Position numbers and translations under genes: made by a program. From contig OZ316899.1 in assembly GCA_973895155.1 (NCBI GenBank), positions 14,697,934-14,761,933 on the forward strand: 64,000 nucleotides of DNA, written 5' to 3'. Positions 8,380 through 40,666 of this stretch are shown piece by piece. Source of the DNA: Marsupella aquatica. Its lineage: Eukaryota; Plantae; Marchantiophyta. The notes below the pieces were generated by a model that worked only from the letters and a program-made list of their open reading frames with translations, was not told the origin of the DNA and did no database searches. Each line of letters begins with the position of its first letter. Position 1 is the first letter of the stretch.

Positions 8380-11300
8380 TGTGATGCCTAGCCAGGAATC
8401 ACTGGGCTAGTTTAAGGGGAAAAGGGAAGTGTACCTTAGAAACACCTTAGTATAGTTACATAAATAAGGAAAATATAAACAATTAAGGGTGACTATGGAA
8501 CCCGAGCCGAGGCCGGAAGTAAGGACGCCAGGGAGAGAACACGATTAGGGGTAAGGACCGCTCGCGAGGAATAGTAGCTCATTTGCAAGCACGAACTGAG
8601 CAGGCGACTACGGGCGGCTAACTACTGTCAACTGCTTAGGCAAGCGCTCAGGGTGGGAACAGATACCGACTATCAACTCGAGAAGGGTATGAGCAACGTC
8701 AATCAAGCGGCATATTTTTGGGGATGCCTGTTCGAACGGGCAACTGAGTATATTGGGACTTACGAGGACGCAAAATTGGAGAGAGCAGCTCGAGAACGGC
8801 AGGAGCTCGCCCGATTGTGGGAGCTGCAGAAACCTGCCTTCTTAGGAGGAGAACTCATCAAGGCTGAATTCCTGTGGACGCCTATTGGCAACGAGCTAGA
8901 CGACCTGCTGTTTTGCGAAGACAGAGTCGTCGGCATCCGAGAAGCCATCAAACGCTGCAACGACATACACTGGGAGTTGAAGGGTAGCACGGAGGGGTGG
9001 ACAAAGGCAACCGTGCTAGGAGAGACATCCACAACAGCCGAGATGAAGAGGAAGAGGAACAACAACAAAGAGGCCACCCCGGCAAAAAAAATGTGGTTGG
9101 CGGCACCAAAGAAGCCAGCAGAACAACAGAGCAGGAGGCAAAGAGAAGCCGAGGAGGAGGAGGTCGACCCCATCAATGCCATTCCAACAAACGATGACAC
9201 TTGGAAAGGCTGGGCGGCGACCCTATCGGAGGAAGTGCAATTACACTTTGCACGGGAGGAGGATGCATGCTTTACAGCCATGCAGACCAAGAAGTACCAA
9301 GGCTTCATGGCCGGATCCGGCTTGGAAGCCTTCGTAAGATTACCATGGCTGAAGCCGGAGGTGCCGGACTCAGACTTGTTAGAATTCGTGGGATCATGGG
9401 AACCCGAGACCAATTCCACGAGGGTGTATGGGAAGGATTTCTATCTCACTCCCCGGGTGATTGCTGAAGTGTTTGGCTTGCCGATGGGTAATAAGACCAA
9501 GGTTGATACCAGGAAGACCTTACCTGACAAGGAGTTTCGGTCGTTCCCAGGACCATCAACAAAGAATGGCTTCTTCCGGAACACCTGCACCAACCCGCAC
9601 ATCGGAGAGATGATCGATTTCTTGCGGGTGACCATGCACTGTAACTTGCCGAGGGCAGAGATCGGCAAGGCTCAGGTCTACCTGGCAGAAAGGCCAGACC
9701 CAAGCCGGGATTACAACGGGTACCTCCTCAACCAACTGAAGAAGATCTTGAAGGAGGAACAGCAGGTGATCGGCGTGGGAAGCATGTCCCAGCTTGGCTA
9801 TCACATGCCGCTGTTGTGCCGGTATGCCAGAAGTCAAATCTTTGCCCCAATACTTCCCCTATCGACAAGAGCACCGGAGGAAGTCCCGAAGCAGAGGCCG
9901 GCACCAGAGAAGCCCAACCAGCCCGACAGTCCGACGATCGAGCAGGTGTTTAGACCAAGGAAAGAAGACTTGCCGATGCAGCAACCAGGCATGCAAAATC
10001 TGCTGAAATTGCTGGAGAAGGAAAGGAGAACGGTTCCGGCAACGGCAACAGATGCGGCACCGATACACGACGCTGCCCCAGAAGCCGACCTAAGCCGGCT
10101 TACAAGGGAAAACCCCTTTACTGGAGTCAAGGAGAGAGGGAGGCTGGAACACGAGCCGGGAGTCCGGATGTATGTAGGAGCCTCAAGTCCCGAAGCCGAG
10201 GAAAAGCAGGCCGTAGCTCCCGGCCACGACAAGGAGAACAAGAGATCAACATGGAAGCCGGAGGAGGAACCAAGACCGGTGAGAGGTGAAGCCGTGTTCA
10301 CAACAAAACCAGGAGAACAGCGGGAGAAGCCGGTAGTCCAAGCCGAGGAGGAGGCGGTAGAGGACTACAGCAATGATGACTCCGGCTACGGGTCGGATCA
10401 TCATGTTCTAGGAGTAAGGACCTGTGGCCGGTTCATCCCCACGCTCCCAAGAGTAGTTCGAGGAGACCCAAGCCAGCAGAGTAGCCCCAAGTCTCCCCCA
10501 CCAGATGTCGCTCCCCCGAGCTTTGACGGCATAAAACAGACGGCGCAGGAATTTCAGGAGCAAATCAGGGAGGAAGAGGAGGCAGCCCTGGCTAGGGAAA
10601 AGGATTTACCAGGAGGAGAATGGCCAGAGGACATCAGGCGGCTTGCAGAAAAACAAAGCAACCCTCTTGCCACCGTAGAAGAAATCCGCAAGACGGCTTG
10701 GGAGCAGAGGCCGCGGTGGTTGATGCCGATGACTTCTAGTTACTCCACCTATGCTAAGGATAGAGCCATGGAGTACGGGGAAATGTGTGGAGAGCTAGCG
10801 CTCAACATCTTTGGGGAGGATTTGGAGCAAGGACCCTTTTTCCAGAGGGAGATGTTGGAGAAGCGCCAATTAGAAGAAGCTGTGGCTTTGGAAAGAAGCA
10901 AGAAGGACGAGGTCATCCATTGGCTTAGGGCAAGAGAAGCCGAAATCAAAGACCTGGGGGCGGCCAAGAAAGCCCAAGATGAGCTGCGGATTAAGCGGCA
11001 TGAGCTAAATATCATGCAGGGCCAATTGGATACCGCACAGTCTGATAATCGGATTATCGAGAATAAACTGACTCGAACCCAAGGAGAGTTGGCCGATGCG
11101 GTCAAGGAGCGGGAGAAGTGGAAGCGAGAGCTGAGGGATGCAGAGGAGGCCCACATAACGGCCAACAACCGGGCCATGGCCTCGCTGTACATAGGTAGAT
11201 TCAGTTAGGTAGATTAGGCTTACGCTGCAAAGAATTAGGCGGATCCACTACCAAGATAAGTACCTGGGCAGCGGGGAGCTCAGGGCCTCTTCTTTAGCAA

Positions 11301-11908
11301 GTTTTTAGTTGCACCAGCCGGGCTGGGATCAAGTAGTAAGAGAAGCTCTCGGTTAGTCATACAATGACCCTTGTGTATATTCATGTTTCCTCATGCCTAA
11401 GAGCTGAATAGAGTTGGCCTCACGGCTTAGTTCGCAGAGCTTGTGTATGAGATGTACTGTTTGTATGGCAAGTGCATGGTATGACTCAGTCAGAAGGAGT
11501 CATTTTGCTATTTGTGTGTCGCATTAACTTGTGTGAAGAGTGCCCACATCAACTAATAGATGAAGGAAAGTAAGCAAGGGAGTGAGAGTTGGATGTGTCG
11601 AGCTGAGAGAGGTCTTAGCGGCTTAACCAAGCCTATTGGGGATCATTCCGGCGGCGGAATCCAAATATACCTAACAAGAAGGAGGGGAAGACAAGGGAAG
11701 GCCTAGATTAGGCCGGCTACGTATCTCATGACCCGATGAAGGATCTGTCCAGTATATGTGTGTAAAATGTTAATAGTAGTAGTAGAGGGAGGTTAGCAGC
11801 GTCCCATGCCACTAAGCCGCGAAAACGGCCTCGCCAAGCGTGAAACCTACGGGAATCGGCTTGTGAAGGGGGGTTTCTGGGGTTTAGGGAGCCATATGAC
11901 GCACCACA
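8380..11908 (+). mobile_element. Solo LTR (3,529 bp) of the same family as the 25121-40661 element, with an ~1.1-kb internal deletion
   Basis: Starts TGTGATGCCTAG and ends GCACCACA like the full-element LTRs; 5-bp TSD CTAAG at 8375-8379 and 11909-11913; no gag/pol, PBS or PPT adjacent. Confidence 0.95.
8689..11208 (+). CDS. LTR-encoded accessory protein (PMD-like motif plus coiled coil), C-terminally truncated by deletion
   Basis: Open frame from ATG 8689, near-identical in its core to 26042-29407; similarity stops after ANNRAMA (~11180), where the sequence jumps to downstream LTR sequence. Confidence 0.85.
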   Translation: MSNVNQAAYFWGCLFERATEYIGTYEDAKLERAARERQELARLWELQKPAFLGGELIKAEFLWTPIGNELDDLLFCEDRVVGIREAIKRCNDIHWELKGSTEGWTKATVLGETSTTAEMKRKRNNNKEATPAKKMWLAAPKKPAEQQSRRQREAEEEEVDPINAIPTNDDTWKGWAATLSEEVQLHFAREEDACFTAMQTKKYQGFMAGSGLEAFVRLPWLKPEVPDSDLLEFVGSWEPETNSTRVYGKDFYLTPRVIAEVFGLPMGNKTKVDTRKTLPDKEFRSFPGPSTKNGFFRNTCTNPHIGEMIDFLRVTMHCNLPRAEIGKAQVYLAERPDPSRDYNGYLLNQLKKILKEEQQVIGVGSMSQLGYHMPLLCRYARSQIFAPILPLSTRAPEEVPKQRPAPEKPNQPDSPTIEQVFRPRKEDLPMQQPGMQNLLKLLEKERRTVPATATDAAPIHDAAPEADLSRLTRENPFTGVKERGRLEHEPGVRMYVGASSPEAEEKQAVAPGHDKENKRSTWKPEEEPRPVRGEAVFTTKPGEQREKPVVQAEEEAVEDYSNDDSGYGSDHHVLGVRTCGRFIPTLPRVVRGDPSQQSSPKSPPPDVAPPSFDGIKQTAQEFQEQIREEEEAALAREKDLPGGEWPEDIRRLAEKQSNPLATVEEIRKTAWEQRPRWLMPMTSSYSTYAKDRAMEYGEMCGELALNIFGEDLEQGPFFQREMLEKRQLEEAVALERSKKDEVIHWLRAREAEIKDLGAAKKAQDELRIKRHELNIMQGQLDTAQSDNRIIENKLTRTQGELADAVKEREKWKRELRDAEEAHITANNRAMASLYIGRFS

Positions 11909-13869
11909 CTAAGGCACACAGCAGAGGTCGACACCTCAAAGTCCCAAACAGAACTAGGAGATGACATGGGAGTTCCTGTGCAGAACGCCAAGGACGATGA
12001 GGTTGAGCAATTGTTTTCCCGACAATTCACCTCGGGGTTAGCTCTACCGGCTAGAAGGACGATATCAGAATCCTCTGTTGAGAACAATGGCGGAGACGAG
12101 TCTAAAAATAACCCGGCTGTAGGACCACCCGCAAGAATCTCGATTGGACACGAGACGGTTCTGATTGTGGAATATCAACCCAGTGCTGAATCACCAAAGG
12201 GAGCCCAAACAATTGAGAAGGCTGCACCCCTTTTACAGGAGGAGTTGCGGTAGCTTGTGCAGGAAGTTTGGCGGAAGGAGGAGGAGGCGTCCAAAGCTAA
12301 GAAATTGCTTGAGTCGCTTTGTATTCAATTGAGTAAGGTGTCGCAGGAGACAGCCATACTCCAAACTTGGTATACAGCCAAACTGGCAACCGAGAAAGCA
12401 AAGACCGCTGATGCCAACACAAATTTGGTGAAATTATGACATACCAAGCACCAGCAAGTGTCTGATTTGGAACTCAAGTTGGCCAGAGCAGTTCAGGACC
12501 TGGCCAAGGAAAGGGACAACTTGATCCACAAGTTGGGCTTAGCCGCAAAAGAACTGGAGGCCGACAGACAAAAGTTAGAAGCCAAACTTGGGGAGATGCA
12601 AGCTAAGTTAGAGACAGAGGTTGCAAGTCTTTGATCGGAGAACCAGGCACTCCAACATCAATTGCAAAAGGCTAATGAGGAGTTGATGTCAGGAACTGCA
12701 GAGAGACAGGCTTTAGGGTTGGAATGCGAAGATCTCCTTGACCGGAATCAGCTTCTGAAAATGCAAGCACAAAATCAACTAAACCAGCTGAAGCAGCTTA
12801 TGGGTTTAGGGTACCTGAGTGTATATAAAGCAAGTTGTTCATTCAGGAGTTGGTATTAGCTTTGATTCCAAGACACTGAACATTGAGTAATGCCACACAG
12901 ATCAGCACAACGTGAAGGGTCAGTTTCATGATTACTATTCATTCACATCTTTTGCAATGTGTTGTCTTGTAGACAGGCATGGGCGAGCCACTCAAACTGT
13001 GGATCGCATAATTTTAGGGATGCGTGGAGGTGTAAAGTGATGGAATTGCCGAGGCTGTTGGGCACACAAGCGAGTGTGGATTGTGGAAATGGGGCGAAGC
13101 CAGCTACAGACGTTCTACATTCAACTTTAAACCCTAAATCCAACATAGCCCGGGGGCGGGTGTTACCAAACAAGCTTGCAACATCTCTCTAGTGGGTTTC
13201 CAATGTTCAGGAGCTGGTGGCCTTCCATCCATGTTTTGGCTGGCCCTGAGGCTGCCTTTCAGCAGTTCATGGACAAAGTCATCATGCGGGTCCCTAAAAC
13301 CCGCCGTCATGTCAGTGGCATGAAGCCACTGGGCTCGACATGATGCCTCGTCATAGATACGCGTTTCCTCAAGCTGGTGCCACAATGTGTGGTTCACAGG
13401 CTGGCCCTGCCTTTTTATGATAGTTCAGGGTCGATTGCAGAATCGAATGTTTTTCAGCCCGAGAACGTGTGCTCTACAAAGCGCCCACAAGTTATATTGT
13501 CCATAGGGTTCCGGATGATTCCAAAAACTTACATTTTGAAGGCCACGACTGTTAAGTACAGAAGGACGATACTCCTTGTTTTTGTGATGACGGCACTTCC
13601 CCTGTGATAACCCTGAACTTCCCCTATTTTGTTGAAGATCATATTTTTTAAGGGTCACGCATCTCCCCAAATTGGGTTCCGAATTTTGGAATTCTGAATT
13701 GATACATGAGTATCTGGTGTACACCGTGCCTTTGTTTAAGGAGGATGATACTACTCCTTCATTTGTTATGACAAGACAGAGCAAATTGAATTTGCAATGG
13801 CCCAAAGCATGATGCACCCTCAACCCTAAATATGAACAATTTCCACGGATGCCTCCTGTGGATACATAC

Positions 13870-17769: not shown

Positions 17770-17975
17770 GTTATCAATCAGGGCATGGACTACGGCCGGA
17801 ATATATTACTGACACATATATGTTCCTGGATTCAATTCAATCAGGGCAGCCATGGACTATGGCTAAACTACATTACACGTATATATATATGTTCTTGGAT
17901 TGAAATCAATCAGGGCATGGACTATGGCAGGCTGGACTACATATATTACACATACATGTTCCTCGATTCAAAGTT
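17770..17975. repeat. Tandem repeat, ~3 copies of a 60-70 bp unit
   Basis: AATCAGGGCA..TGGACTA..ATTACAC..ATATGTTC(C/T)TGGATT repeated. Confidence 0.8.
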
Positions 17976-25115: not shown

Positions 25116-26041
25116 CCGACTGTGGTGCGTCCCATGGCTCCCTAAACCCAAGAAACCCCCCAGCTCAAGCCGATTCCCGCAGGTTTCGTGCTTGGCGAGG
25201 CCGTTTCCGCGGCTTAGCGGCATGGGACGCTGCTAACCTTCTACTACTACTATTAACATTTTACACACATATACTGGACAGATCCTTCATCGGGTCATGA
25301 GATACGTAGCCGGCCTAATATAGGTCTTCCCCTGTCTTCCCCTGTCTTCCCCTCCGTCTTGTTAGGTATGTTTGGATTCCGCCGCCGGAATGATCCCCAA
25401 TAGGCTTGGTTAAGCCGCTAAGACCTCTCTCAGCTCGACACATCCAACTCTCACTCCCCTGCTTACTTTCCTTCCTTCTGTTGATGTGGGCACTCTTCAC
25501 ACAAGTTAATGCGACACACAAATAGCAAAATGACTCATTCTGACTGAGTCATACCATGCACTTGCCATACAAACAGTACATCTCATACACCAGTTCTGCG
25601 AACTAAGCCGTGAGGCCAACTCTATTCAGCTCTTAGGCATGAGGAAACATGAATATACACAAGGGTCACTGTATGACTAACCGAGAGCTTCTCGTACTAC
25701 TTGATCCCAGCCCGGCTGGTGCAAACTAAAAACTTGCTAAAGAAGAGGCCCTGAGCTCCCCGCTGCCCAGGTACTTATCCTGGTAGTGGATCCGCCATTC
25801 TTTGCATCGTAAGCCTAATCTACCTGACAGTAATCTACTTGCCCGAATCTACCTATGTACAGCAAGGCAGGAGCACAAGTGTTGCTCCTACCAGTGGAAC
25901 CGCAATCCCACTAAGCTAAGTGTCAGGGCCGCTCCTGGTTCTAATCCTAATCCTAAACGTGGAGATCCGCGCCCGCCCTGCCCACTCACGCCTCCTCCCT
26001 CCACGTCCGCCCTCCCTAAAAGGAACGGCGCCCTTGCACCG

Positions 26042-29000
26042 TCACGACACCGGTGGTGGATCCTCAATGGACGCCCCCAACACTTCCCCCTCAGCCACTG
26101 CCGTTGGCCCGCCTACTGACAGATTACCTGCCCTTGACCGAGTCAACTCTCCCTCGGCCTGACTGGGTCCACCTTCGGCTTCAGCCTCGACACCGGCCTC
26201 GGCAATACCCACGGCTTCAGCCTCAGCCACTCCCACGGCTTTGGCTTCAGCCACTCCCTCGGCTTCGGCCTCCCCTTCCCCTAGGGTAGTTGGATCCTTA
26301 GCCGTGACCCTGTCTGGGGTCGGTGCTGGGTCTACCTCCTTGATCACCACGGCCTGTGAAGTCGTATTACTCCTTGACCTTGAAGGTTTCCGCTTCTTCT
26401 TCGTTGGTGGCTCGGCATCTGGTCCCTTCCCCTTCCCACTTACTTCCGGCACTGGTGCAGGTGGCGCGGCCTGTCCTTCGGCAATTACCACCCCTGGTAA
26501 CTGGTTTGTCCCAACGGGAGATGGACCTGCTGCAGCTAAGCATTTAAATACTGCGGCTTGTTTCTTCAGCCGCTCAGTTTGGTTGTCGGCCCGCCGCTGT
26601 AGGTTCTCCATCTTCCTCGTGATTTCCTCCAACTCCTCTTGGGTTTCATCCAGGTCCTTACGTGCCCCCTCCAGCTCATTTTTGGCCTCCTCCTGGTCCC
26701 TGTGGGCTTCCTCCAATTCCTTCTTCAAGGTAGCCCTCTCCTCCTGGGTTGCTCTTAGCTCCTTGTCGAGCTCTGCAATGATGACAGACTCCATCTGATT
26801 CATCTTGGCGTAAGTCTGTTCGAGCATCTCGTCCTTCTCCCTTAGGTCGGCCTTGAAGCTGGCCGTCAGGGACGCAAGCTCCTGCTGCAGCGCCATAATC
26901 CCTTGATAGGATTTCCCTAACTCGGCCTCCTTCTGCTCAAGGGCTCCGCGGATTTTCTCGAGCTCCCCTTTCAACGCCCATTCCTTTCTTTGGGTCTCCG
27001 CCATGGCCCGGCTGTTGGCTGTTATGTGGGCCTCCTCTGTATTCTTCAGCTCTTGCTTCCACTTCTCCCTCTCTTTGATCGTGTCGGCCAACTCTTCCTG
27101 CGTCTGAGTCAGTTTATCCTTGATATTCTGATTATCAGCCTGCGCGGTGTCCAACTGCCCCTGCATGATGTTCAGCTCATGTCGTTTAATTCGCAGTTCA
27201 TCTTGGGCTTTCTTGGCCGCCCTTAGATCTTCAATCTCGGCTTCCATCCTCCTAAGCCGCCGAATGACCTCGTCCTTCTTGCTTCTCTCTAAAGCCACCG
27301 CTTCTTCTAATTGGTGCTTCTCCAACTGCTCCCTATGGAAAAAGGGTCCTACCTCCAACTCCTCTCCAAAGATGCCGAGCGCAAGTTCCCCACACATCTC
27401 ACCATACTCCATGGCTCTATTCTTAGCGTAGGTGGAGTAAGTAGAAGTGATCGGCATCGCCCATCGTGGCCTCTGCTCCCAAGCCGTCCTGCGGATCTCT
27501 TCAATCGTGGCTAGAGGTTTGCTTCCTTTTTCGGCTAGCCGCCTGATGTCCTCCGGCCAATCTCCTCCTGGTAAATCCTTTTCCTTAGCCAGGGCGGCCT
27601 CCTCTTCCTGCTTGATTCGCTCCTGAAATTCCTGCACCGTCTGTTTTATGCCGTCGAAGCTCGGGGGGGCAACGTCTGGTGGGGGAGACTCAGGGCTACT
27701 CTGCTGGTTGGGGTCCCCTCGCACTACCCTTGGAAGTGTGGGGACAAACCGGCCACAGGTCCTTACTCCTGGAACGTGATGGTCCGACCCATAGCCGGAA
27801 TTATCATGGCTGCAGTCCTCCACTGCCTCCTCTACCTCTTGGACGTCCGGCTTCTCCCTCTCCTCTTCGTCGGTAGGAGCTTCAGGCAATTCTGCCTCAG
27901 ATTCGGAGCTTGAGGTTCCCACGTACATTCGAACACCTGGCTTGGATTTCGGCCTGATTCTCTCCTTGTCTCCAGCAAAGGGGTTTTCTCTTGTGAGCCG
28001 GTGTAGGCCTACCTCTGTAGTAGTGTCCTGCATTGTTGCCGTTGCCGTTGTTGTTGCCGATGCCGATTTCTTTTCTTTCTCCAGTAGTTTCAGCAGACTC
28101 TGCATGCCTGGTTGCTGCATCGGCAAGTCCTCCTTCCTGGGCCTAAACACCTGCTCGATCGTAGGACTAACAGGTGGTTGAGGCTTCTCAGCCAACGGCC
28201 TCGGCGTTGGAGCTTCCTCGGGTGCCCTTACCTGCAGGGGAAGTACCGGGGCAAAAGTCTGACCTCTGGCATACCGGCACAACAGCGGCATGTGATAGCC
28301 AAGCCGCGACACGCTCCCCATGCCGATTACCTGCTGCTCCTCCTTTAAGATCTTCTTCAATTGGTTGAGGAGGTACCCGTTGTAGTCCCGGCTTGGGTCT
28401 GGCCTTTCTGCCAGATAGACCTGTGCCTTGCCGATCTCTGCCCTCGGCAAGTTACAATGCATGGTCACCCGCAAGAAGTCGATCATCTCTCCTATGTGCA
28501 GGTTGGTGCAGGTGTTCCGGAAGAAGCCATTCTTCGTTGATGGCCCGGGGAACGACCGGAACTCCTTGTCAGGCAAGGTCTTCCTGGTATCAACTTTGGT
28601 CTTATTGCCTATCGGCAGGCCAAACACTTCGGCAATTACCTTGGGAGTAAGATAGAAATCCTTCCCATATATCCTCGTGCAATTGGTCTCGGGTTCCCAT
28701 GACCCCACGAATTCTAATAGGTCTGACTCCGGTACCTCCGGCTTCAGCCATGGTAATCTTACAAAGGCCTCCAAGCCGGATCCGGCCATGAAGCCTTGGT
28801 ACTTCTTGGTCTGCATGGCCGTAAAGCATGCATCCTCCTCCCGTGCAAAATGTAGTTGCACCTCCACCGGTAGGGTTGCCGCCCAGCCCTTCCAGGTGTC
28901 ATCCCTGGTTGGAATGGCCTTGATGGGATCGACCTCCTCTTCTTCGGCTTCTCCCTGCCTCCTGCTCTGCTGCTCGGCTGGCTTCTTTGGTGCCGCCGAT

Positions 29001-29407
29001 CTCGTTCTTTTTGCCGGGGTGGCTTCATCGTTGACGGCTCCCTTCCTCTTCATCTCTGCTGCCGTGGAGGTTTCTCCTAGCACCGTTGCCTGGGTCCACC
29101 TTTCCGTGCTACCCTTTAATTCCCAGTGTATGTCGTTGCAGTTCTTGATGGCCTCTCGGATGCCGACGACGCTGTCTTTGCAAAACAGAAGATCGTCGAG
29201 TTGATTGGAAGTAGGCGTCCACAGGAACTCGTCCTTGATGAGTTCGCCTCCTAAGAAAGCCGTCTTCTGCAGCTCCCACAATCGAGCGAGCTCCTGCCGT
29301 TCTCTAGCTGCCCTTTCTGATTCCTCGTCCTCGTAAGTCTTGATGTACTCAGTTGCCCGTTCGAACAGGCATCCCCAGAAATGTGCCACTTGATTGACGT
29401 TGCTCAT
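26042..29407 (-). CDS. 1,121-aa LTR-encoded accessory protein: N-terminal domain, PMD-like motif, long coiled coil, NLS, acidic GVAEAEA repeats
   Basis: Intact ORF wholly inside the LTR; LLEFVGSWEPETN..LTPKVIAEVFGLPIG resembles the PMD motif LI.AL.ERW.PETH.F....E.TITL.DVA..LGLPI.G; E/K/Q/L-rich heptads from ~aa 690 to 960; KKKRKPSRSR. Confidence 0.9.
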   Translation of the reverse strand: MSNVNQVAHFWGCLFERATEYIKTYEDEESERAARERQELARLWELQKTAFLGGELIKDEFLWTPTSNQLDDLLFCKDSVVGIREAIKNCNDIHWELKGSTERWTQATVLGETSTAAEMKRKGAVNDEATPAKRTRSAAPKKPAEQQSRRQGEAEEEEVDPIKAIPTRDDTWKGWAATLPVEVQLHFAREEDACFTAMQTKKYQGFMAGSGLEAFVRLPWLKPEVPESDLLEFVGSWEPETNCTRIYGKDFYLTPKVIAEVFGLPIGNKTKVDTRKTLPDKEFRSFPGPSTKNGFFRNTCTNLHIGEMIDFLRVTMHCNLPRAEIGKAQVYLAERPDPSRDYNGYLLNQLKKILKEEQQVIGMGSVSRLGYHMPLLCRYARGQTFAPVLPLQVRAPEEAPTPRPLAEKPQPPVSPTIEQVFRPRKEDLPMQQPGMQSLLKLLEKEKKSASATTTATATMQDTTTEVGLHRLTRENPFAGDKERIRPKSKPGVRMYVGTSSSESEAELPEAPTDEEEREKPDVQEVEEAVEDCSHDNSGYGSDHHVPGVRTCGRFVPTLPRVVRGDPNQQSSPESPPPDVAPPSFDGIKQTVQEFQERIKQEEEAALAKEKDLPGGDWPEDIRRLAEKGSKPLATIEEIRRTAWEQRPRWAMPITSTYSTYAKNRAMEYGEMCGELALGIFGEELEVGPFFHREQLEKHQLEEAVALERSKKDEVIRRLRRMEAEIEDLRAAKKAQDELRIKRHELNIMQGQLDTAQADNQNIKDKLTQTQEELADTIKEREKWKQELKNTEEAHITANSRAMAETQRKEWALKGELEKIRGALEQKEAELGKSYQGIMALQQELASLTASFKADLREKDEMLEQTYAKMNQMESVIIAELDKELRATQEERATLKKELEEAHRDQEEAKNELEGARKDLDETQEELEEITRKMENLQRRADNQTERLKKQAAVFKCLAAAGPSPVGTNQLPGVVIAEGQAAPPAPVPEVSGKGKGPDAEPPTKKKRKPSRSRSNTTSQAVVIKEVDPAPTPDRVTAKDPTTLGEGEAEAEGVAEAKAVGVAEAEAVGIAEAGVEAEAEGGPSQAEGELTRSRAGNLSVGGPTAVAEGEVLGASIEDPPPVS

Positions 29408-29680
29408 ACCCTCCTTAGGTTGATCGTCGGTATCTACTCTCTCCCCGAGTGCTTGCCTAAGCAGCTGACAGTAGTTGGCCTCCCGTAGTCGTCTGCCTAG
29501 TTCGTGCTCGCAAATGAGCCACTATTTCCTGCAAGCGCTCCTTACCCCTCTCCTTTGCCGGTCCTTCTTCCCGTTGATCCTTCCTAGCCGCCGACGCTTA
29601 ACGCGCCCTAACCCTAATCGGGTTTTCACCCTTAGCCTTACCTCCGGCCTCGGCCCGGGTTCCATGGTTGCCCCTAATTG

Positions 29681-29686
29681 TTTATA
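29681..29686 (-). promoter_or_regulatory. Candidate TATA box near the LTR 5' end, upstream of the LTR ORF
   Basis: TATAAA ~95 bp inside the LTR and ~275 bp before the ATG; conserved in the 5' LTR and in the diverged solo LTR (8474-8479). Confidence 0.35.
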
Positions 29687-29783
29687 TTTTCCTTGTTTTG
29701 TCACTATACTAAGGTGTTCCTAGGGTGCCTTCCTGCTTTACCCACTTAACCGGCCGAGTGATTCCTGTCTAGGCATCACATAG

Positions 29784-29793
29784 CTCCCCACTT
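29784..29793 (-). other. Polypurine tract (PPT)
   Basis: AAGTGGGGAG, 3 nt before the TGTG start of the 3' LTR. Confidence 0.8.
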
Positions 29794-32700
29794 AATTGTG
29801 AAGCGTCCTCGCGAACAACTTCATCTTCGTCCATATAGTATTTCTTGAGGCGGTCATAATGGATGCGAACTGGATATACCTCTCCCGTAATGTTGGCCAA
29901 TTGTACGGAGCCATTGGGGAACATCATGGTTACTCTAAAGGGTCCTAACCAGCGAGTGTAAAGCTTTCCTGGAAACCTACTATACCTACTGTCATAAAGT
30001 AGCACAAGATCACCGGTATGAATACTAACTACTTTTAACCTTTTATCATACTGCTGCTTCATGATATTCTGTCTATATTCTACTCTCTCGGCTGAAATCA
30101 TTCTCGCTTCCTCTAAAGCTTCTAACCTATATTCTCGCTCCTTTAGGCTCTCCTCCGCTGAGGCTCTTTCCTCAATTGTAACTTGAAATGTCGGTATCTC
30201 AAGTTGCGTGGGTACCAGGGCTTCTTGTCCAAAGGTTAAGAAGAAGGGTGTATGACCGGTAGTGGATTTATAGGCAAGATTGTAAGCAAAAACAGCAGCA
30301 AACAATTTATCATCCCAATCGAGTTTGTTCTGAGCTACTGTCTTGTTCAATATCTTTCCTATAATTCCGTTTGCTCGTTCTGTCAACCCGTTTGCCTTTG
30401 GATGGTAGGGAGTAGTAGGCCTATGTTTAACTAAATACTGCTCATTTAAACGACTAATTATATCATTCAAAAAATGGGTTCCTCTATCACTAACTAATTC
30501 TAGGGGTGCTCCATACCTGGTGAAGATCTGCTCATACATGAATCTAGCCGTAGTAATTGCATCATCCTTCGTTGTTGGTCTGGCCTCTACCCATTTAGTT
30601 GCATAATCCGTAGCCAGGATTATGTACTTGTTCCGTCGAGGGTGGGTCAGTGGTTTCAGAGGTCCAATGTAATCAATACCCCACTTCTCGAATGGTGCCA
30701 GAGGTAGAATAGGGTGCAGTGGATGCCTGGTGGACGCCCTTGGTCCTCCCGCTCATTGACAAGGATCGCATTGTTTGATAAACTGATAGACATCTTTGTG
30801 CAAGGTGGGCCACCAGTAACCGGCATTTAATATCTTCTTAGACGTGGTTACTGGGGCAAAATGTCCTCCGGCCTCCTCTCCATGCATGGCCCGTAGGACT
30901 CGTTTTACCTCTCTCTTTTCCAAACATCTTTGAATCGTGCCGTTGATTCCATGCTTGTGCAGTATGCCTTTAATGCACTGATACTGTCTGACCTTCCGCA
31001 CAAAGACTGCGGCTTGCTCTCGGCTTAATCCTGGCTGTAATCTGGAAGTGCTGAGAAATTGTAAAATCTCAGGGTACCATGTACCAGCTATTTCCACAAC
31101 GAATAGCTCCTCGTCGGGGAATCGATCATCGATGCAATCCGTGGCAGGTTTACCTGTGATCCTTGAAAAGAAGTTGGCATTGGCATGTAACTTTCCCGGC
31201 TTGATCCTCAGCTCATAGTCAAACTCCTGTAATAGCAAAATCCATCTTGCTACTCTGCCTGTAAGGTCCGGCTTATTGACTAGGTACTTCAAACTTTCAT
31301 GATCAATATGAAAGATTACCTTGTACCCTAGTAAATAATGCCTAAACTTTTTACAAGAATAAATGACTCCTAATGCTTCTCTTTCCGTGGTAGAGTAGTT
31401 CCGTTCGGCATCGGCAAGCTGACGGCTTGCGAAGTATATGGGATGGTCCCTTCCTTTCTCATCCAACTGACTTAGTACTGAGCCAATACAGAAGCCCGAG
31501 ACATCTACAAAAACATGAAAATCTTTGTTCCAGTCCGGTGCTATCATGACTGGGGCCTCTACTAACATCTGCTTCAATTCTACCACCGCTGTGACTCGTT
31601 CGGGTGTGGGTTCGAAGTCTGCTCCTGCCTTGAGCATATTGGTTAATGGTAAAGCTAGCTTGGCAAAATCCTTGATGAACCGGCGATAGTAACCAATGCA
31701 TCCCAAGAAGGATCTTACATCCTTTATGTTCTTAGGTTGCATGATATCTAGCCATACTGCTAGCTTACCTTTGTCAATCTCAATGCCCTTCCTTGATACC
31801 TTGTGACCTAGTAGCACCCCCTCGGTTACTGCAAAAAAACATTTATCTGGGTGTAACTTGAGACCCACCTCTCTACATCTCATGAAGGTTTTTCTGAGGT
31901 ATTTAGCATGTTTCGATGCCTTCCCGAATACTGCAAAGTCATCAATGAAGATTTCCATGAACTTTCTCAAGTAATCATGGAAAATGTTCACCATTAATCG
32001 TTGGAACATAGCTGGTGCGTTGCAGAGTCCAAACGGCATACGATTGAAGACATAGATCCCCCATTCCGTGATGAAGGCCGTCTTGATTTGGTCTTCCTGC
32101 CGAATCCGGATTTGGTTATAACCAGAGTATCCATCCATGAATGAATATAGTTCATGACTGGCTACCATGTCTAGTACCATATCAGTAAACGGTAAAGGAA
32201 AATGGTCTTTTAATGTTGCTTCATTCAGCTTCCTGTAATCCTGACAAACCCGGATCTTGGGTTTACCATCGGGTCCAGCTTTCTTGGGAACTATCACAAT
32301 TGGAGACACCCAGTCTGAATGCAGGACTGGAGTGATGAATCCAGCTTCCACTAGTTTGTCGATTTCTGTTTTGACCAGCAGGGAATACTTCGGGTTCATC
32401 CTTCGAATTGGTTGTCGGAATGATTTGGCTCCCAGCATGAGATCAATTCGATGTTCCCCTAGTGTTGGATCTACTCCCTTTAGATCTTGGTGACTCCATG
32501 CAAACACATCCTGAAATTCAATCAATAAGTCACTAATCTCTTTCTCGAGCTCAGGTGCTAGATTTCTCCCTAAGTTCAGTTCTCTTCCCTCTCCTAAGTC
32601 GAGCTTCCGATATTGCCGTGCTTGGATCATATTAATCTGCTTCTTCAAATTCGGGTCCAGTTCGGCTTCCAGTCTCTCTAATCTCATACCTCCATAAACT

Positions 32701-32941
32701 GGGATTTCGGCTGGACTAGCCGAGTCGGTCCCTTCCTTGGTGTCCATAGATTGTCCCCTTACCGGTCTATTCGGTTTTGAATTAGTGGTCGGCTCCCCTT
32801 CCTGCCTTGGCTCTGGATCGTGTCTGTCCATCTCATCCACCTCTTGCTCCTGAGAGTTAGGCCGCTGTGCTCTCTCGGCTTCTAATAGGGCCTCAATTTG
32901 TTCTGCCCTCGTAATCGGCTTGTATGCCGATCCCTTGGTAT

Positions 32942-35932
32942 TTAATTCCTTGCCGATGATCGATGGCGTTGTGAACCCTGCCGGCTCTGCCACAACGCCT
33001 GCAGAAAATTCACTGTCCCTGCTACTGCTCCCCACTTAGCCGTTTCATCCAATTGGTCTACATCCTTTACTTCCTCCGGAATTGCAGCTAAAAAGGTGGA
33101 TTCTATTGTAAAGCAGTCCTCGACCTCTGCGTCTTCTTCTTCCAAGTCACCTTCCATTGGTTCCTGCCATAATCCGCTGGGGGGTACCTCAGGTCCAAAG
33201 ACACCTTCTTCGGTTAGGTTAGTGAGGCATTCTAACCAACGTACTTCATCGGCTGACTCCAGTCCACTGTCGTACCCATCTACTTCCCTTATGCTTTTCC
33301 TACGGTCATCCTTAGTGTCCCAGGATACTGTGATAGAGGGGGTCCCGAAAGTGAACTGCTTTTTACCCCAATCTTCTATTACCTCGGCTAGATACAGCCA
33401 TGGCCTACCAATCAATAGCCGGAATGACGTAGGGTTTACCGGCTTCATTACTACATAGTTAATGCTAAAGAAGATACCTCCTATCTCTGTCTTGATGCCG
33501 GTTAACACTCCCGTAGGAATGACCTGATATCCATTGGCCATGTTCAACACTCTTCCAGTCATCTCCGGTGTTAGACCCCACCCTTTTGCTGTTGAATCAA
33601 TCATAATACATACCCCTGATCCTCCATCGATGGGTACCCGTAGTAATAATTCTCCTTGAATCATTAATGGTAATGCTGGGGCTCCTTGATCTTCTTCTAT
33701 CATTAGTACGTCGGATCTGGTTGCTACCTTGGGTAATCTCGGCTTGCCGAGAATAGCCTTCCTTAATTGCTTCCGGAAGTACGGGCTATTTTTCAATAGT
33801 TGACCTACTGTTGCCGAGACTCTAGATTCTAGTACATCTTTAGCCAGGTCATAGGGAACAATCGGCTTCTCCTCTGGTGGTGTTTCCTTGGATTCGGCCA
33901 GTTTTGCCACGCTAGTCTCCACAGCTGTTGGGTCTTCCGAAGCAAACAATGCTTTTGCTCGTTTTACATCTTTGGCAATGGCTTCGGTATTCTCCAGGGT
34001 TTCTAATTCTCTTAGTTGTTCCTTAACACTAGCCGTAACAGAGGGGTAGAACAACTTAGGATGATCTCGATTGAAGTCGCTATCTTGTGAAGGATTGGGT
34101 TCACTGGTGGGCTCATGGCTTACCTGTATTGCCGGAGCCCTCCCTTCTCCTTCTGTTGATGTTGACGAAGAGTCGATCCTTTCCTCCGTAACCTTCCCTT
34201 TATTTTTGGCCAGCCCATCCCACCTTTCCTTCCTTCTGGTAGATCGAGTAGAGACCCGGTAGCAATCATGATCTAAATCCTCCTCTGAGAAGGTTGATAG
34301 GGCTTCGGCCTCATCATCAGATGGTACGAACTCTGCCTCGGCATCCTCTTGCCATCCTAGTTCGATGTGGTTGATTTGAACTCCTCCGGGGGTAGTACCT
34401 GGCGGTAAGATCTTGATCGGCAAAAGCTTATGATTTGCGGCCAGGCCTGCCAACCAAGTAGGACATTGCCCTAGCATATGACCTTCCTGTCGGCATCCCA
34501 TACATAGCTGAGCTGGTTGTCCATCACCCTGTTTGCGTGCATTCGGGCATTCTCTAGCAAAATGGCCAGGTTGACCACAATTATAGCACGCCGCAAATCT
34601 TTGCACATTCGGCCTAGGAGGTACTGACGGGTTCTGAATAATCCGAGGATACATCTCTCCTGGATTGTTCCTTAACCCTGACCACAGAGATGCAGGTCTG
34701 TTGGATAGGTCTCGTGCTCCAATCTCACTGATGCCGAAAACACTATCAGCGGCATCTCCTAAAAAGTACTCTACTTCTCCCTGACATGGTCTGATCTCGG
34801 CCACATGCCGAACATGATTAGTATTAAGCTTAGGACACGCATCTTTATGGTGTCCGGTTTTATAACATAAGGCACACCATACAGAGCTATCCTCCTGTAC
34901 TACCTTCTTCTTTGGTTTTACCTCTGCAATGATAGCTTTAAGTTGCTCGGTAAGGGCTACGATGTTATCTGGTGGCTTAGCCTCCATCTTGACTTTCGTC
35001 TTCCCTCTCCTTCTGCCCTTCCTTTTCCTAGTTTTTTCTTCTTCAGAACTAGAAGATGACTCACTCTTGCTACTCCCACTATTCGAGCTTGACTTATCAC
35101 TTCTAGACTTCTTGGAATGTTTCTTCTTCTTATCTTTTTTCTTATGGGGTGATCCCTCCTCTGATGAGGAACTCTCAGACTTAAGCTGTTTCTTCCGGCT
35201 TGTGATATCTGCATTAATGTATAATTGAATATCCTTAATTGCTTCGGCTAAAGTCTCCGGGTTCTCCTTCCTAATTGCAAAACTCATCTTCTGTGGCAAA
35301 GCATTCACCAACCATTGAAGTTGCATACCTTCAGATGCATTGGTCTTTGTACGTCTTACCAGTTTCTGAAAGCGTTGCAAGAACTTCCTGAAGGATTTAT
35401 TCTCCTTGAACCGAAGTTGTCCCAACTTCAGCACTGCTAGTTCTGAAGTTCCAATGGGTCGAAACTCCTTAACAAAGAGTGTTTTGAAGATATCCCAGAT
35501 GGCTTGATCTTCCACATCTAATGCTCTGTACCAAGGCCTAGCCTCACCCTTGAACAGGCCGGGAAGAATCTGCATCTTGATGGCCGATTCTCCATTTGCT
35601 GCAGCGGTTCCCTCGAAATCATCCAACCATTCGTCCGGATCCTCATCTCCTCTCCCATGAAATGCCTTGTAATGTATGCGCGACCGCTGGCTCAATCTGG
35701 TCCCTGACCTCTCGTCTGGCCGTGCCTCTGGTTCCCCCATGTCGGTTGTAGACTCACTTCTCCTTACCGACTCTTCTTCTGGTATGTCTTCTTCGACGCC
35801 ACTTCCAGTTTCGGAGCTACCAGCTCTTTCTGCCCCTCTCAGTCGCTGTGTATCATGCCACCCGGCGAGCTGCTGCAGTCGAGCTCTCTCCCGTTGAATC
35901 ACTCTTTCTTCCCTCGGCGTAAGGTCAGTCAT
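32942..35932 (-). CDS. gag: Gag-protease polyprotein (996 aa): retrotransposon gag core, three CCHC knuckles, aspartic protease
   Basis: FHGRGDEDPDEWLDDF..GEARPWY; CALCYKTGHHKDAC, CYNCGQPGHFAREC, CMGCRQEGHMLGQC; IDGGSG..LLIGRPWL. Confidence 0.95.
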   Translation of the reverse strand: MTDLTPREERVIQRERARLQQLAGWHDTQRLRGAERAGSSETGSGVEEDIPEEESVRRSESTTDMGEPEARPDERSGTRLSQRSRIHYKAFHGRGDEDPDEWLDDFEGTAAANGESAIKMQILPGLFKGEARPWYRALDVEDQAIWDIFKTLFVKEFRPIGTSELAVLKLGQLRFKENKSFRKFLQRFQKLVRRTKTNASEGMQLQWLVNALPQKMSFAIRKENPETLAEAIKDIQLYINADITSRKKQLKSESSSSEEGSPHKKKDKKKKHSKKSRSDKSSSNSGSSKSESSSSSEEEKTRKRKGRRRGKTKVKMEAKPPDNIVALTEQLKAIIAEVKPKKKVVQEDSSVWCALCYKTGHHKDACPKLNTNHVRHVAEIRPCQGEVEYFLGDAADSVFGISEIGARDLSNRPASLWSGLRNNPGEMYPRIIQNPSVPPRPNVQRFAACYNCGQPGHFARECPNARKQGDGQPAQLCMGCRQEGHMLGQCPTWLAGLAANHKLLPIKILPPGTTPGGVQINHIELGWQEDAEAEFVPSDDEAEALSTFSEEDLDHDCYRVSTRSTRRKERWDGLAKNKGKVTEERIDSSSTSTEGEGRAPAIQVSHEPTSEPNPSQDSDFNRDHPKLFYPSVTASVKEQLRELETLENTEAIAKDVKRAKALFASEDPTAVETSVAKLAESKETPPEEKPIVPYDLAKDVLESRVSATVGQLLKNSPYFRKQLRKAILGKPRLPKVATRSDVLMIEEDQGAPALPLMIQGELLLRVPIDGGSGVCIMIDSTAKGWGLTPEMTGRVLNMANGYQVIPTGVLTGIKTEIGGIFFSINYVVMKPVNPTSFRLLIGRPWLYLAEVIEDWGKKQFTFGTPSITVSWDTKDDRRKSIREVDGYDSGLESADEVRWLECLTNLTEEGVFGPEVPPSGLWQEPMEGDLEEEDAEVEDCFTIESTFLAAIPEEVKDVDQLDETAKWGAVAGTVNFLQALWQSRQGSQRHRSSARN
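32965..33011 (-). promoter_or_regulatory. Putative programmed -1 ribosomal frameshift signal
   Basis: G_AAU_UUU heptamer in gag phase (33011-33005), 5-nt spacer, perfect 9-bp stem GGCGTTGTG/CACAACGCC; pol is in the -1 frame and open only in the ~94-nt overlap. Confidence 0.75.
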
Positions 35933-35979
35933 TACCTACGCTTCCGTTCTAACTTCATATCTCACGGCTTAAGAAATGC

Positions 35980-35997
35980 CCCCTCCATCTAGCGCCA
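35980..35997 (-). other. Primer-binding site, probably tRNA-Asn(GUU)
   Basis: TGGCGCTAGATGGAGGGG, 4 nt after the 5' LTR; complementary with one mismatch to the plant tRNA-Asn 3' end ...CCCCUCCUUCUAGCGCCA as I recall it. Confidence 0.8.
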
Positions 35998-36001
35998 AAA
36001 A

Positions 36002-39000
36002 TGTGGTGCGTCCCATGGCTCCCTAAACCCAAGAAACCCCCCAGCTCAAGCCGATTCCCGCAGGTTTCGTGCTTGGCGAGGCCGTTTCCGCGGCTTAGCG
36101 GCATGGGACGCTGCTAACCTTCTACTACTACTATTAACATTTTACACACATATACTGGACAGATCCTTCATCGGGTCATGAGATACGTAGCCGGCCTAAT
36201 ATAGGTCTTCCCCTGTCTTCCCCTGTCTTCCCCTCCGTCTTGTTAGGTATGTTTGGATTCCGCCGCCGGAATGATCCCCAATAGGCTTGGTTAAGCCGCT
36301 AAGACCTCTCTCAGCTCGACACATCCAACTCTCACTCCCCTGCTTACTTTCCTTCCTTCTGTTGATGTGGGCACTCTTCACACAAGTTAATGCGACACAC
36401 AAATAGCAAAATGACTCATTCTGACTGAGTCATACCATGCACTTGCCATACAAACAGTACATCTCATACACCAGTTCTGCGAACTAAGCCGTGAGGCCAA
36501 CTCTATTCAGCTCTTAGGCATGAGGAAACATGAATATACACAAAGGTCACTGTATGACTAACCGAGAGCTTCTCGTACTACTTGATCCCAGCCCGGCTGG
36601 TGCAAACTAAAAACTTGCTAAAGAAGAGGCCCTGAGCTCCCCGCTGCCCAGGTACTTATCCTGGTAGTGGATCCGCCATTCTTTGCATCGTAAGCCTAAT
36701 CTACCTGACAGTAATCTACTTGCCCGAATCTACCTATGTACAGCAAGGCAGGAGCACAAGTGTTGCTCCTACCAGTGGAACCGCAATCCCACTAAGCTAA
36801 GTGTCAGGGCCGCTCCTGGTTCTAATCCTAATCCTAAACGTGGAGATCCGCGCCCGCCCTGCCCACTCACGCCTCCTCCCTCCACGTCCGCCCTCCCTAA
36901 AAGGAACGACGCCCTTGCACCGTCACGACACCGGTGGTGGATCCTCAATGGACGCCCCCAACACTTCCCCCTCAGCCATTGCCGTTGGCCCGCCTACTGA
37001 CAGATTACCTACCCTTGACCGAGTCAACTCTCCCTCGGCCTGACTGGGTCCACCTTCGGCTTCAGCCTCGACACCGGCCTCGGCAATACCCACGGCTTCG
37101 GCCTCAGCCACTCCCACGGCTTCGGCTTCAGCCACTCCCTCGGCTTCGGCCTCCCCTTCCCCTAGGGTAGTTGGATCCTTAGCCGTGACCCTGTCTGGGG
37201 TCGGTGCTGGGTCTACCTCCTTGATCACCACGGCCTGTGAAGTCGTATTACTCCTTGACCTTGAAGGTTTCCGCTTCTTCTTCGTTGGTGGCTCGGCATC
37301 TGGTCCCTTCCCCTTCCCACTTACTTCCGGCACTGGTGCAGGTGGCGCGGCCTGTCCTTTGGCAATTACCACCCCTGGTAACTGGTTTGTCCCAACGGGA
37401 GATGGACCTGCTGCAGCTAAGCATTTAAATACTGCGGCTTGTTTCTTCAGCCGCTCAGTTTGGTTGTCGGCCCGCCGCTGTAGGTTCTCCATCTTCCTCG
37501 TGATTTCCTCCAACTCCTCTTGGGTTTCATCCAGGTCCTTACGTGCCCCCTCCAGCTCATTTTTGGCCTCCTCCTGGTCCCTGTGGGCTTCCTCCAATTC
37601 CTTCTTCAAGGTAGCCCTCTCCTCCTGGGTTGCTCTTAGCTCCTTGTCGAGCTCTGCAATGATGACAGACTCCATCTGATTCATCTTGGCGTAAGTCTGT
37701 TCGAGCATCTCGTCCTTCTCCCTTAGGTCGGCCTTGAAGCTGGCCGTCAGGGACGCAAGCTCCTGCTGCAGCGCCATAATCCCTTGATAGGATTTCCCTA
37801 ACTCGGCCTCCTTCTGCTCAAGGGCTCCGCGGATTTTCTCGAGCTCCCCTTTCAACGCCCATTCCTTTCTTTGGGTCTCCGCCATGGCCCGGCTGTTGGC
37901 TGTTATGTGGGCCTCCTCTGTATTCTTCAGCTCTTGCTTCCACTTCTCCCTCTCTTTGATCGTGTCGGCCAACTCTTCCTGCGTCTGAGTCAGTTTATCC
38001 TTGATATTCTGATTATCAGCCTGCGCGGTGTCCAACTGCCCCTGCATGATGTTCAGCTCATGTCGTTTAATCCGCAATTCATCTTGGGCTTTCTTGGCCG
38101 CCCTTAGATCTTCAATCTCGGCTTCCATCCTCCTAAGCCGCCGAATGACCTCGTCCTTCTTGCTTCTCTCTAAAGCCACCGCTTCTTCTAATTGGTGCTT
38201 CTCCAACTGCTCCCTATGGAAAAAGGGTCCTACCTCCAACTCCTCTCCAAAGATGCCGAGCGCAAGTTCCCCACACATCTCACCATACTCCATGGCTCTA
38301 TTCTTAGCGTAGGTGGAGTAAGTAGAAGTGATCGGCATCGCCCATCGTGGCCTCTGCTCCCAAGCCGTCCTGCGGATCTCTTCAATCGTGGCTAGAGGTT
38401 TGCTTCCTTTTTCGGCTAGCCGCCTGATGTCCTCCGGCCAATCTCCTCCTGGTAAATCCTTTTCCTTAGCCAGGGCGGCCTCCTCTTCCTGCTTGATTCG
38501 CTCCTAAAATTCCTGCACCGTCTGTTTTATGCCGTCGAAGCTCGGGGGGGCAACGTCTGGTGGGGGAGACTCAGGGCTACTCTGCTGGTTGGGGTCCCCT
38601 CGCACTACCCTTGGAAGTGTGGGGACAAACCGGCCACAGGTCCTTACTCCTGGAACGTGATGGTCCGACCCATAGCCGGAATTATCATGGCTGCAGTCCT
38701 CCACTGCCTCCTCTACCTCTTGGACGTCCGGCTTCTCCCTCTCCTCTTCGTCGGTAGGAGCTTCAGGCAATTCTGCCTCAGATTCGGAGCTTGAGGTTCC
38801 CACGTACATTCGAACACCTGGCTTGGATTTTGGCCTGATTCTCTCCTTGTCTCCAGCAAAGGGGTTTTCTCTTGTGAGCCGGTGTAGGCCTACCTCTGTA
38901 GTAGTGTCCTGCATTGTTGCCGTTGCCGTTGTTGTTGCCGATGCCGATTTCTTTTCTTTCTCCAGTAGTTTCAGCAGACTCTGCATGCCTGGTTGCTGCA

Positions 39001-40661
39001 TCGGCAAGTCCTCCTTCCTGGGCCTAAACACCTGCTCGATCGTAGGACTAACAGGTGGTTGAGGCTTCTCAGCCAACGGCCTCGGCGTTGGAGCTTCCTC
39101 GGGTGCCCTTACCTGCAGGGGAAGTACCGGGGCAAAAGTCTGACCTCTGGCATACCGGCACAACAGCGGCATGTGATAGCCAAGCCGCGACACGCTCCCC
39201 ATGCCGATTACCTGCTGCTCCTCCTTTAAGATCTTCTTCAATTGGTTGAGGAGGTACCCGTTGTAGTCCCGGCTTGGGTCTGGCCTTTCTGCCAGATAGA
39301 CCTGTGCCTTGCCGATCTCTGCCCTCGGCAAGTTACAATGCATGGTCACCCGCAAGAAGTCGATCATCTCTCCTATGTGCGGGTTGGTGCAGGTGTTCCG
39401 GAAGAAGCCATTCTTCGTTGATGGCCCGGGGAACGACCGGAACTCCTTGTCAGGCAAGGTCTTCCTGGTATCAACTTTGGTCTTATTGCCTATCGGCAGG
39501 CCAAACACTTCGGCAATTACCTTGGGAGTAAGATAGAAATCCTTCCCATATATCCTCGTGCAATTGGTCTCGGGTTCCCATGACCCCACAAATTCTAATA
39601 GGTCTGACTCCGGTACCTCCGGCTTCAGCCATGGTAATCTTACAAAGGCCTCCAAGCCGGATCCGGCCATGAAGCCTTGGTACTTCTTGGTCTGCATGGC
39701 CGTAAAGCATGCATCCTCCTCCCGTGCAAAATGTAGTTGCACCTCCACCGGTAGGGTTGCCGCCCAGCCCTTCCAGGTGTCATCCCTGGTTGGAATGGCC
39801 TTGATGGGATCGACCTCCTCTTCTTCGGCTTCTCCCTGCCTCCTGCTTTGCTGCTCGGCTGGCTTCTTTGGTGCCGCCGATCTCGTTCTTTTTGCCGGGG
39901 TGGCTTCATCGTTGACGGCTCCCTTCCTCTTCATCTCTGCTGCCGTGGAGGTTTCTCCTAGCACCGTTGCCTGGGTCCACCTTTCCGTGCTACCCTTTAA
40001 TTCCCAGTGTATGTCGTTGCAGTTCTTGATGGCCTCTCGGATGCCGACGACGCTGTCTTTGCAAAACAGAAGATCGTCGAGTTGATTGGAAGTAGGCGTC
40101 CACAGGAACTCGTCCTTGATGAGTTCGCCTCCTAAGAAAGCCGTCTTCTGCAGCTCCCACAATCGAGCGAGCTCCTGCCGTTCTCTAGCTGCCCTTTCTG
40201 ATTCCTCGTCCTCGTAAGTCTTGATGTACTCAGTTGCCCGTTCGAACAGGCATCCCCAGAAATGTGCCGCTTGATTGACGTTGCTCATACCCTCCTTAGG
40301 TTGATCGTCGGTATCTACTCTCTCCCCGAGTGCTTGCCTAAGCAACTGACAGTAGTTGGCCTCCCGTAGTCGTCTGCCTAGTTCGTGCTCGCAAATGAGC
40401 CACTATTTCCTGCAAGCGCTCCTTACCCCTCTCCTTTGCCGGTCCTTCTTCCCGTTGATCCTTCCTAGCCGCCGACGCTTAACGCGCCCTAACCCTAATC
40501 GGGTTTTCACCCTTAGCCTTACCTCCGGCCTCGGCCCGGGTTCCATGGTTGCCCCTAATTGTTTATATTTTCCTTGTTTTGTCACTATACTAAGGTGTTC
40601 CTAGGGTGCCTTCCTGCTTTACCCACTTAACCGGCCGAGTGATTCCTGTCTAGGCATCACA
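36002..40661 (-). repeat. 5' LTR (4,660 bp)
   Basis: Near-identical to 25121-29780 (about 16 substitutions seen by eye, no indels); followed by the PBS. Confidence 0.97.
36923..40288 (-). pseudogene. 5'-LTR copy of the accessory ORF, broken by one CAG>TAG at 38504-38506
   Basis: ORFs 38504-40345 and 36923-38338 are in frame; plus-strand A at 38506 versus G at the homologous 27625. Confidence 0.92.
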
Positions 40662-40666
40662 CCGAC

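Follow-up and report, generated by a model that had tools for sequence, protein, structure and literature searches.

An accessory gene inside the long terminal repeats of a Ty3/gypsy retrotransposon in Marsupella aquatica

Structure of the element

We analyzed a 64,000-nucleotide stretch of Marsupella aquatica DNA (contig OZ316899.1, positions 14,697,934 to 14,761,933), referred to here as the window, in which a Ty3/gypsy retrotransposon carries a long open reading frame (ORF) inside its long terminal repeats (LTRs). Comparison of the window with itself returned a single ungapped direct-repeat pair, 25121-29780 and 36002-40661, of 4,660 bp each and 99.66% identity. The element reads on the minus strand, both LTRs have TG at the start and CA at the end, and a CCGAC target-site duplication (TSD) stands at either flank. 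The LTR borders proposed in an earlier note on this DNA, together with their TSD, primer-binding site (PBS), and polypurine tract (PPT), were therefore borne out by the self-comparison and the inspected ends. The same holds for the position the note gave the ORF, 373 bp from the LTR start and about 920 bp from its end; it begins 373 bp into the LTR, and 921 bp remain after it. The claim that each LTR carries a complete gene fails, however, as the 1,121 codons are open in the 3′ LTR only; in the 5′ copy, a stop at codon 595 divides the frame into ORFs of 594 and 471 amino acids. The probability of 1,121 codons remaining open by chance at the ORF's composition is about 1e-21. The features of the element are as follows.

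25116..25120: left TSD, CCGAC, from sequence inspection
25121..29780, minus strand: 3′ LTR, 4,660 bp, from self-comparison and end motifs
26042..29407, minus strand: LTR ORF, intact, 1,121 amino acids, in the 3′ LTR
29769..33035, minus strand: reverse transcriptase-RNase H-integrase (RT-RH-INT) frame, −1 relative to gag-protease (gag-PR) with a 94-bp overlap, from the ORF list and Pfam
29781..29795, minus strand: PPT, within the terminal integrase codons and abutting the 3′ LTR
32942..35932, minus strand: gag-PR ORF, 996 amino acids, with Retrotrans_gag, zf-CCHC, and a putative protease motif at amino acid 769, from the ORF list, Pfam, and the motif
35980..35997, minus strand: PBS, beginning TGG, 4 nucleotides past the 5′ LTR
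36002..40661, minus strand: 5′ LTR, 4,660 bp, from self-comparison and end motifs
36923..40288, minus strand: 5′ copy of the LTR ORF, interrupted at codon 595 (38504-38506), in the 5′ LTR
40662..40666: right TSD, CCGAC, from the sequence and from a joint skipping the element in 4/4 runs examined

The domain order by Pfam is gag-PR-RT-RH-INT, and the top PDB sequence match of pol is Ty3-G Gag-Pol (E 7e-72); the protease was recognized by its motif alone. We take the PBS to be, putatively, of the tRNA-Asn type; a PBS for tRNA-Asp, tRNA-Asn, or tRNA-Ala is among the criteria for Athila. No tRNA genes were found within the 64-kb window and no Rfam families inside the element. The final integrase codons reach 12 nucleotides into the 3′ LTR and the PPT lies within the last of them, so that nothing separates pol from the LTR. 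With an in-frame stop in pol (30753-30755) as well as the one in the 5′ LTR ORF, this copy is probably not autonomous. Two further motifs lie in the internal region. Where the gag-PR/pol overlap begins, 12 bases that repeat the PPT core (33027-33038, minus strand) form a possible central PPT, and a splice-donor-like sequence over the gag start codon (~35928-35937, minus strand) could join a leader to the 3′ LTR ORF.

A solo LTR and an older homolog of the LTR gene

Two further copies of the gene, one nested in the other, lie elsewhere in the window.

8380..11908, plus strand: solo LTR of a diverged subfamily, with matching terminal motifs, the TSD CTAAG (8375-8379 and 11909-11913), and a 1,133-bp internal deletion
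8689..11208, plus strand: LTR ORF in the solo LTR, 839 codons open, 3′ end deleted
7037..8379, plus strand: older degenerate LTR ORF homolog, 36% amino acid identity over amino acids 1-393, five stops, interrupted by the solo LTR
11914..12859, plus strand: older homolog continued in the same frame past the solo LTR, three internal stops, weak coiled-coil similarity (E 0.25)

The solo LTR has no internal region, and its ORF occupies the equivalent place and is open up to the 1,133-bp deletion. Over 799 codons compared with the 3′ LTR ORF, synonymous divergence (dS) is 0.47 and nonsynonymous divergence (dN) 0.094, a dN/dS of 0.20 (Fisher p 2e-43) that falls to 0.10 within amino acids 166-385. 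Such a ratio between two LTR-borne copies indicates purifying selection while the gene sat between matching LTR ends in two subfamilies. The noncoding 3′ part of the LTR (25121-26000 versus 11180-11908) is 95 to 97% identical between the subfamilies and the ORF about 85%, with the change at the deletion. This is most simply explained by a template switch between subfamilies, and a recombinant LTR is possible.

The older homolog totals about 760 codons with eight internal stops and keeps its frame across the solo LTR insertion. No gag or pol was found nearby, nor were LTR ends, since the four TSD-bounded candidate pairs compare with ~4.8 expected by chance. It may be an ancient solo LTR that belonged to a related family, and it shows how old the gene family is rather than a position in LTRs.

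Public reads were consulted in six runs with four organism codes, which contain 58 to 81% of the LTR's words, and four of the six were used for depth. None of the six is listed as an RNA run, which carries no information on expression. If most copies had short LTRs and an internal ORF, the ORF/gag ratio should be ~1 and the distal LTR/ORF ratio at least 2. Summed depth over the ORF was instead 2.7 to 3.4 times that of gag, and the distal noncoding LTR stood at 0.7 to 1.4 times the ORF. ORF depth thus appears to track the LTR and not the internal region, a weak support given that summed contig depth is not copy number and one distal bin pair was used. To the same weak degree it argues against other copies with short LTRs and the ORF internal, a prospect that the earlier note had raised against itself. 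Among the 40 of 1,402 differences that were listed, 11 of the 19 inside the ORF are synonymous. Contigs from two runs (8 and 35) begin to diverge at ~26029, right past the ORF stop, which suggests subfamilies with another C terminus and the same distal LTR.

These data support an accessory gene inside the LTR as a trait of the family. The proposal that the family built this gene into its LTR and that solo LTRs keep it is upheld by the TSD-flanked solo LTR with its selected ORF and, weakly, by depth; it needs qualification in that the 5′ copy is broken and the solo copy is shortened by a 1,133-bp deletion that takes in the 3′ end of the ORF.

Age and authenticity of the insertion

All 16 differences between the two LTRs are transitions, and 15 of the 16 fall in CG or CHG context, compared to 39% of C/G sites (p ~7e-6). 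Methylation-type transitions between the LTRs indicate a methylated insertion that has aged in place, not an assembly collapse. The divergence of 0.34% corresponds to roughly 0.1 to 1.1 million years at rates of 1.3e-8 to 1.5e-9, which we presume to apply. A joint that leaves out precisely the element and one copy of the TSD was present in all four public runs examined. Since the flank is itself repeated, this joint may stem from another copy of the host repeat instead of an empty allele; from either source, it fixes the ends of the element. The repeated flank that hosts the element includes an ORF with an RNase H1 N-terminal domain (40893-41495, minus strand; PF01693, E 1e-10). We conclude that the element is a recently inserted nonchromovirus Ty3/gypsy retrotransposon.

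The layout could in principle be an artifact or accident, either an error of assembly or of tandem duplication, or a passenger (a nested element or captured gene) that entered an ordinary short LTR on one occasion and was then copied along with no benefit to the element. Damage to both other copies in the window and the lack of recognizable LTR ends around the older homolog would fit such an origin. The methylation-type differences and the skipping joint speak against it, as do the solo LTR, which is independent and shares the ends and the ORF but has a TSD of its own, selection between the LTR-borne copies, and an ORF depth that does not lie under distal LTR depth as a short-LTR majority requires. 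We regard this explanation as very improbable and already largely refuted, including the assembly or tandem-duplication artifact against which the earlier note had cautioned, and we are highly confident that the architecture, a gene inside the LTRs, is secure.

Relationship to known elements

A chromodomain, the mark of chromoviruses, was not matched behind the integrase at E≤0.1 (Pfam). Neither the gag-PR nor the pol frame matched a family of the archaeal-type RNase H (aRH), which defines Tat elements (TatI-III, Ogre, and Retand) in REXdb; the native RNase H retains D, E, and D, with N at the fourth acidic position. Phygy and Selgy elements are described as compact, with a 4-bp TSD and no extra ORF (PMC6317226), whereas both our element and the solo LTR have 5-bp TSDs.

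A close likeness is to the Athila/Tat (OTA) nonchromoviruses, which share the Ty3/gypsy domain order, the 5-bp TSD, the lack of a chromodomain, and a large accessory ORF that follows pol, here the copy in the 3′ LTR (PMC6317226; PMC7264820; PMC11963269). In contrast to the internal extra ORFs published for Athila/Tat, the ORF here is duplicated in the LTRs, and the element has neither a spacer between pol and the LTR nor an aRH. LTR length by itself is not exceptional, as nonchromovirus LTRs reach ~5 kb (PMC6317226) and those of Ogre up to 6.5 kb (PMC6431247; PMC3485330). Ogre and Retrosat2/RIRE3 resemble our element in their LTRs of 3 to 6.5 kb and an extra ORF of unassigned function, but in the available sections of the Retrosat2 account and the giant-transposon review the extra ORFs are internal or precede gag-pol, and the long LTRs count as noncoding (PMC6431247; PMC3485330). 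Internal or upstream placement is likewise given in a review (PMC7264820) and in passages of the Retand survey (PMC11963269). REXdb locates the domains that the LTR ORF protein may resemble nearly all in 3′ extra ORFs (PMC6317226).

An ORF wholly inside the LTR is the layout of U3-encoded accessory genes of the mouse mammary tumor virus (MMTV) sag type. As with MMTV sag and lentiviral nef, a sense ORF in the LTR is copied to both ends at each replication; unlike them, it belongs to a plant retrotransposon, its U3 placement is inferred, and the ORF alone measures 3.4 kb against an MMTV LTR of ~1.3 kb, and no homology is claimed (PMC2664473, available sections).

A literature search made without most subscription journals, GyDB, and Repbase turned up no plant element whose LTRs contain an ORF, in keeping with the earlier note's suggestion that the architecture may be undescribed. 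Its novelty in plants is nevertheless not proven; sense ORFs in the TatII group occur at matched frequencies 5′ and 3′ (23% and 26%; PMC6317226, available sections), the pattern that an LTR-located ORF would produce. Plant LTRs are treated as noncoding and solo LTRs as inert, and a selected 3.4-kb LTR gene changes both views; solo LTRs retain the gene, and annotation tools that score the internal region alone miss it.

Features of the predicted protein

The protein of the intact ORF consists of a conserved N-terminal block (amino acids 1-105), a globular domain (166-385), and then an acidic and proline-rich linker, with a coiled coil of ~250 amino acids at about 700-950 and basic motifs resembling nuclear localization signals at amino acids 133 and 1003. 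A homolog is annotated in the liverwort Calypogeia fissa. The alignments of relatives used 21 matches minus P0012 (repetitive and named gliding-motility-like), P0023 (matched by short repeated stretches alone), and P0007, P0008, and P0011 (similarity confined to the N-terminal part). No Pfam family scored above its cutoff for the LTR ORF or its relatives in hmmscan, including PF03078, PF04195, PF10536, and PF20167. PDB sequence searches with LTR ORF profiles were blank, and Foldseek returned nothing at E≤0.001 for the protein against PDB and BFVD. Word-index protein searches with the LTR ORF gave 0 of 6,588 and 0 of 480 candidates, and 0 of 6,854 in a search whose length window (1,379 to 3,935 amino acids) was too long to be useful; metagenome contig scans for LTR ORF loci gave 0/309 and 0/74.

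Transcription signals and a proposed explanation

The candidate promoter of the LTR ORF is present in both LTRs.

29681..29686, minus strand: TATAAA at LTR +95, 3′ LTR, candidate promoter
40562..40567, minus strand: TATAAA at LTR +95, 5′ LTR, candidate promoter (function inferred), kept in the solo LTR

A conserved upstream ATG at +116, in the frame of the main ORF, meets a stop after 47 codons (29522-29665, minus strand; LTR +116 to +259), with a donor-like motif downstream of it at +139. CpG depletion is milder at the LTR ends (0.84 to 0.92 versus ~0.65), as is usual at promoters, and it was not taken as evidence; telobox-like motifs near the ORF starts are too few to use.

What the accessory ORFs of retrotransposons do has long been asked without a settled answer (PMC7264820). 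The explanation we propose, to which we give about an even chance, is that the family maintains a selected 1,121-codon gene in its 4.66-kb LTR, likely in an expanded U3 and under its own promoter at the 5′ end of the LTR, and that this gene encodes a predicted nuclear coiled-coil DNA-binding regulator acting in trans. The 3′ accessory region, the one found after pol and before the 3′ LTR in Athila/Tat relatives, would have become part of U3 once plus-strand priming settled on the purine tract that ends the integrase. From then on, every round of reverse transcription would place the gene of the 3′ LTR in both LTRs. Transcription of the ORF mRNA would depend on the TATAAA at +95, whether in one of the two LTRs or in a solo LTR, with gag-pol starting at a second promoter near the 3′ end of the LTR, and a solo LTR would persist as a cassette of promoter, ORF, and terminator. 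The regulator may act in trans on the family's LTRs, by anti-silencing or activation. The function of the protein, whether as regulator or anti-silencing factor, is a prediction and the weakest step. Because the gene forms a compact cassette together with a candidate promoter, and the family is young and high in copy number, such a role is directly testable.

As to placement, U3 is copied from the 3′ LTR template, and the 3′ LTR is the copy with the intact ORF. We favor the ORF lying in U3, with modest confidence, and consider R or U5 clearly less probable. The element would have either a coding U3 of 4.5 kb or an R/U5 of ~4 kb, which is unusual both ways.

Several observations weigh against the proposed explanation. 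This copy is partly dead, with stops in the 5′ ORF and pol. The TATAAA at +95 is the sole conserved canonical TATA and is accompanied by a conserved donor-like GTAAG at +139, which also fits a long R/U5, while the distal TATA-like motif at +4458, needed as the gag-pol promoter if the ORF is in U3, is altered in the solo LTR. For the protein, a match to VANC21, of the VANC/plant mobile domain (PMD)/Transposase_32 superfamily, fell below the tool's trust level, on a model with a predicted local distance difference test (pLDDT) score of 57, and VANC21 was not among the best 50 matches for a second model, that of a 20%-identical relative. No tandem target-motif array like that of VANC was found in the noncoding parts of the LTR. 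A feature-level lead pointed to the Athila family PF03078 at 0.87, where scores below 0.9 are leads only.

The promoter motifs would also be accommodated if the gene is a real LTR gene located in R/U5. The single promoter at +95 would then start the genomic RNA with the ORF as its first cistron; RNAs ending in the 5′ LTR, in a GT-rich, 3′ untranslated region-like stretch past the ORF (~+4050 to +4300), would serve as ORF mRNA, and read-through with splicing from +139 would yield gag-pol mRNA. The presence of that stretch, and the retention in the solo LTR of TATAAA and GTAAG but not of the distal motif, agree with this arrangement. It would, however, demand that R or U5 span ~4 kb and that the genomic RNA, with a 4.5-kb leader, measure 11 to 15 kb; the related REXdb domains are located 3′ of pol, and no clear acceptor precedes the gag ATG, where the sequence is donor-like. 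We consider it possible but improbable.

Alternatively, the gene may be fixed in the LTR and encode not a DNA-binding regulator but a structural or chaperone protein of the Athila env-like class, serving as particle scaffold or in RNA transport or integration targeting through its coiled coil. The length of that coiled coil and the failure to replicate the VANC fold link are compatible with such a role, and a sense ORF directly behind the integrase holds the env-like position (PMC7264820). On the other hand, no transmembrane segment was found in the protein (best 19-residue Kyte-Doolittle mean, 0.98), its own promoter and persistence in solo LTRs would bring a structural protein little gain, and two leads, both unconfirmed, point to DNA-binding families. 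We therefore see a structural role as unlikely.

A more specific version of the regulator that we propose is that a VANC/PMD-like anti-silencing gene was taken into the LTR by an undescribed early-land-plant Ty3/gypsy lineage. Each insertion would then carry two doses, and solo LTRs, which host recombination leaves behind and which are normally dead ends, would persist as self-contained expression cassettes and go on reactivating the family in trans. VANC is described as dicot-specific and MuDR-encoded (PMC13547354; bioRxiv 2024.09.27.615353), and the LTR ORF protein differs from VANC of VANDAL DNA transposons and from PMD MAIN/MAIL1, with 6% identity and no tandem target motifs found (PDB 9lnk; PMC13547354; bioRxiv 2024.09.27.615353). 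This version is doubtful; if true, solo-LTR formation would spread a counter-defense gene rather than remove it.

Other features of the window

A degenerate, unrelated Ty3/gypsy pol (RT, RH, and INT) at 53083-55609 on the plus strand has 24 to 41% identity to the pol of the element. A long exon of a host gene encoding a filament-like plant protein (PF05911) occupies 61636-63999 on the minus strand. Tandem arrays lie at 5997-6503, 17773-17972, and 23012-23410, with periods of 35, 69, and 211 bp, respectively.

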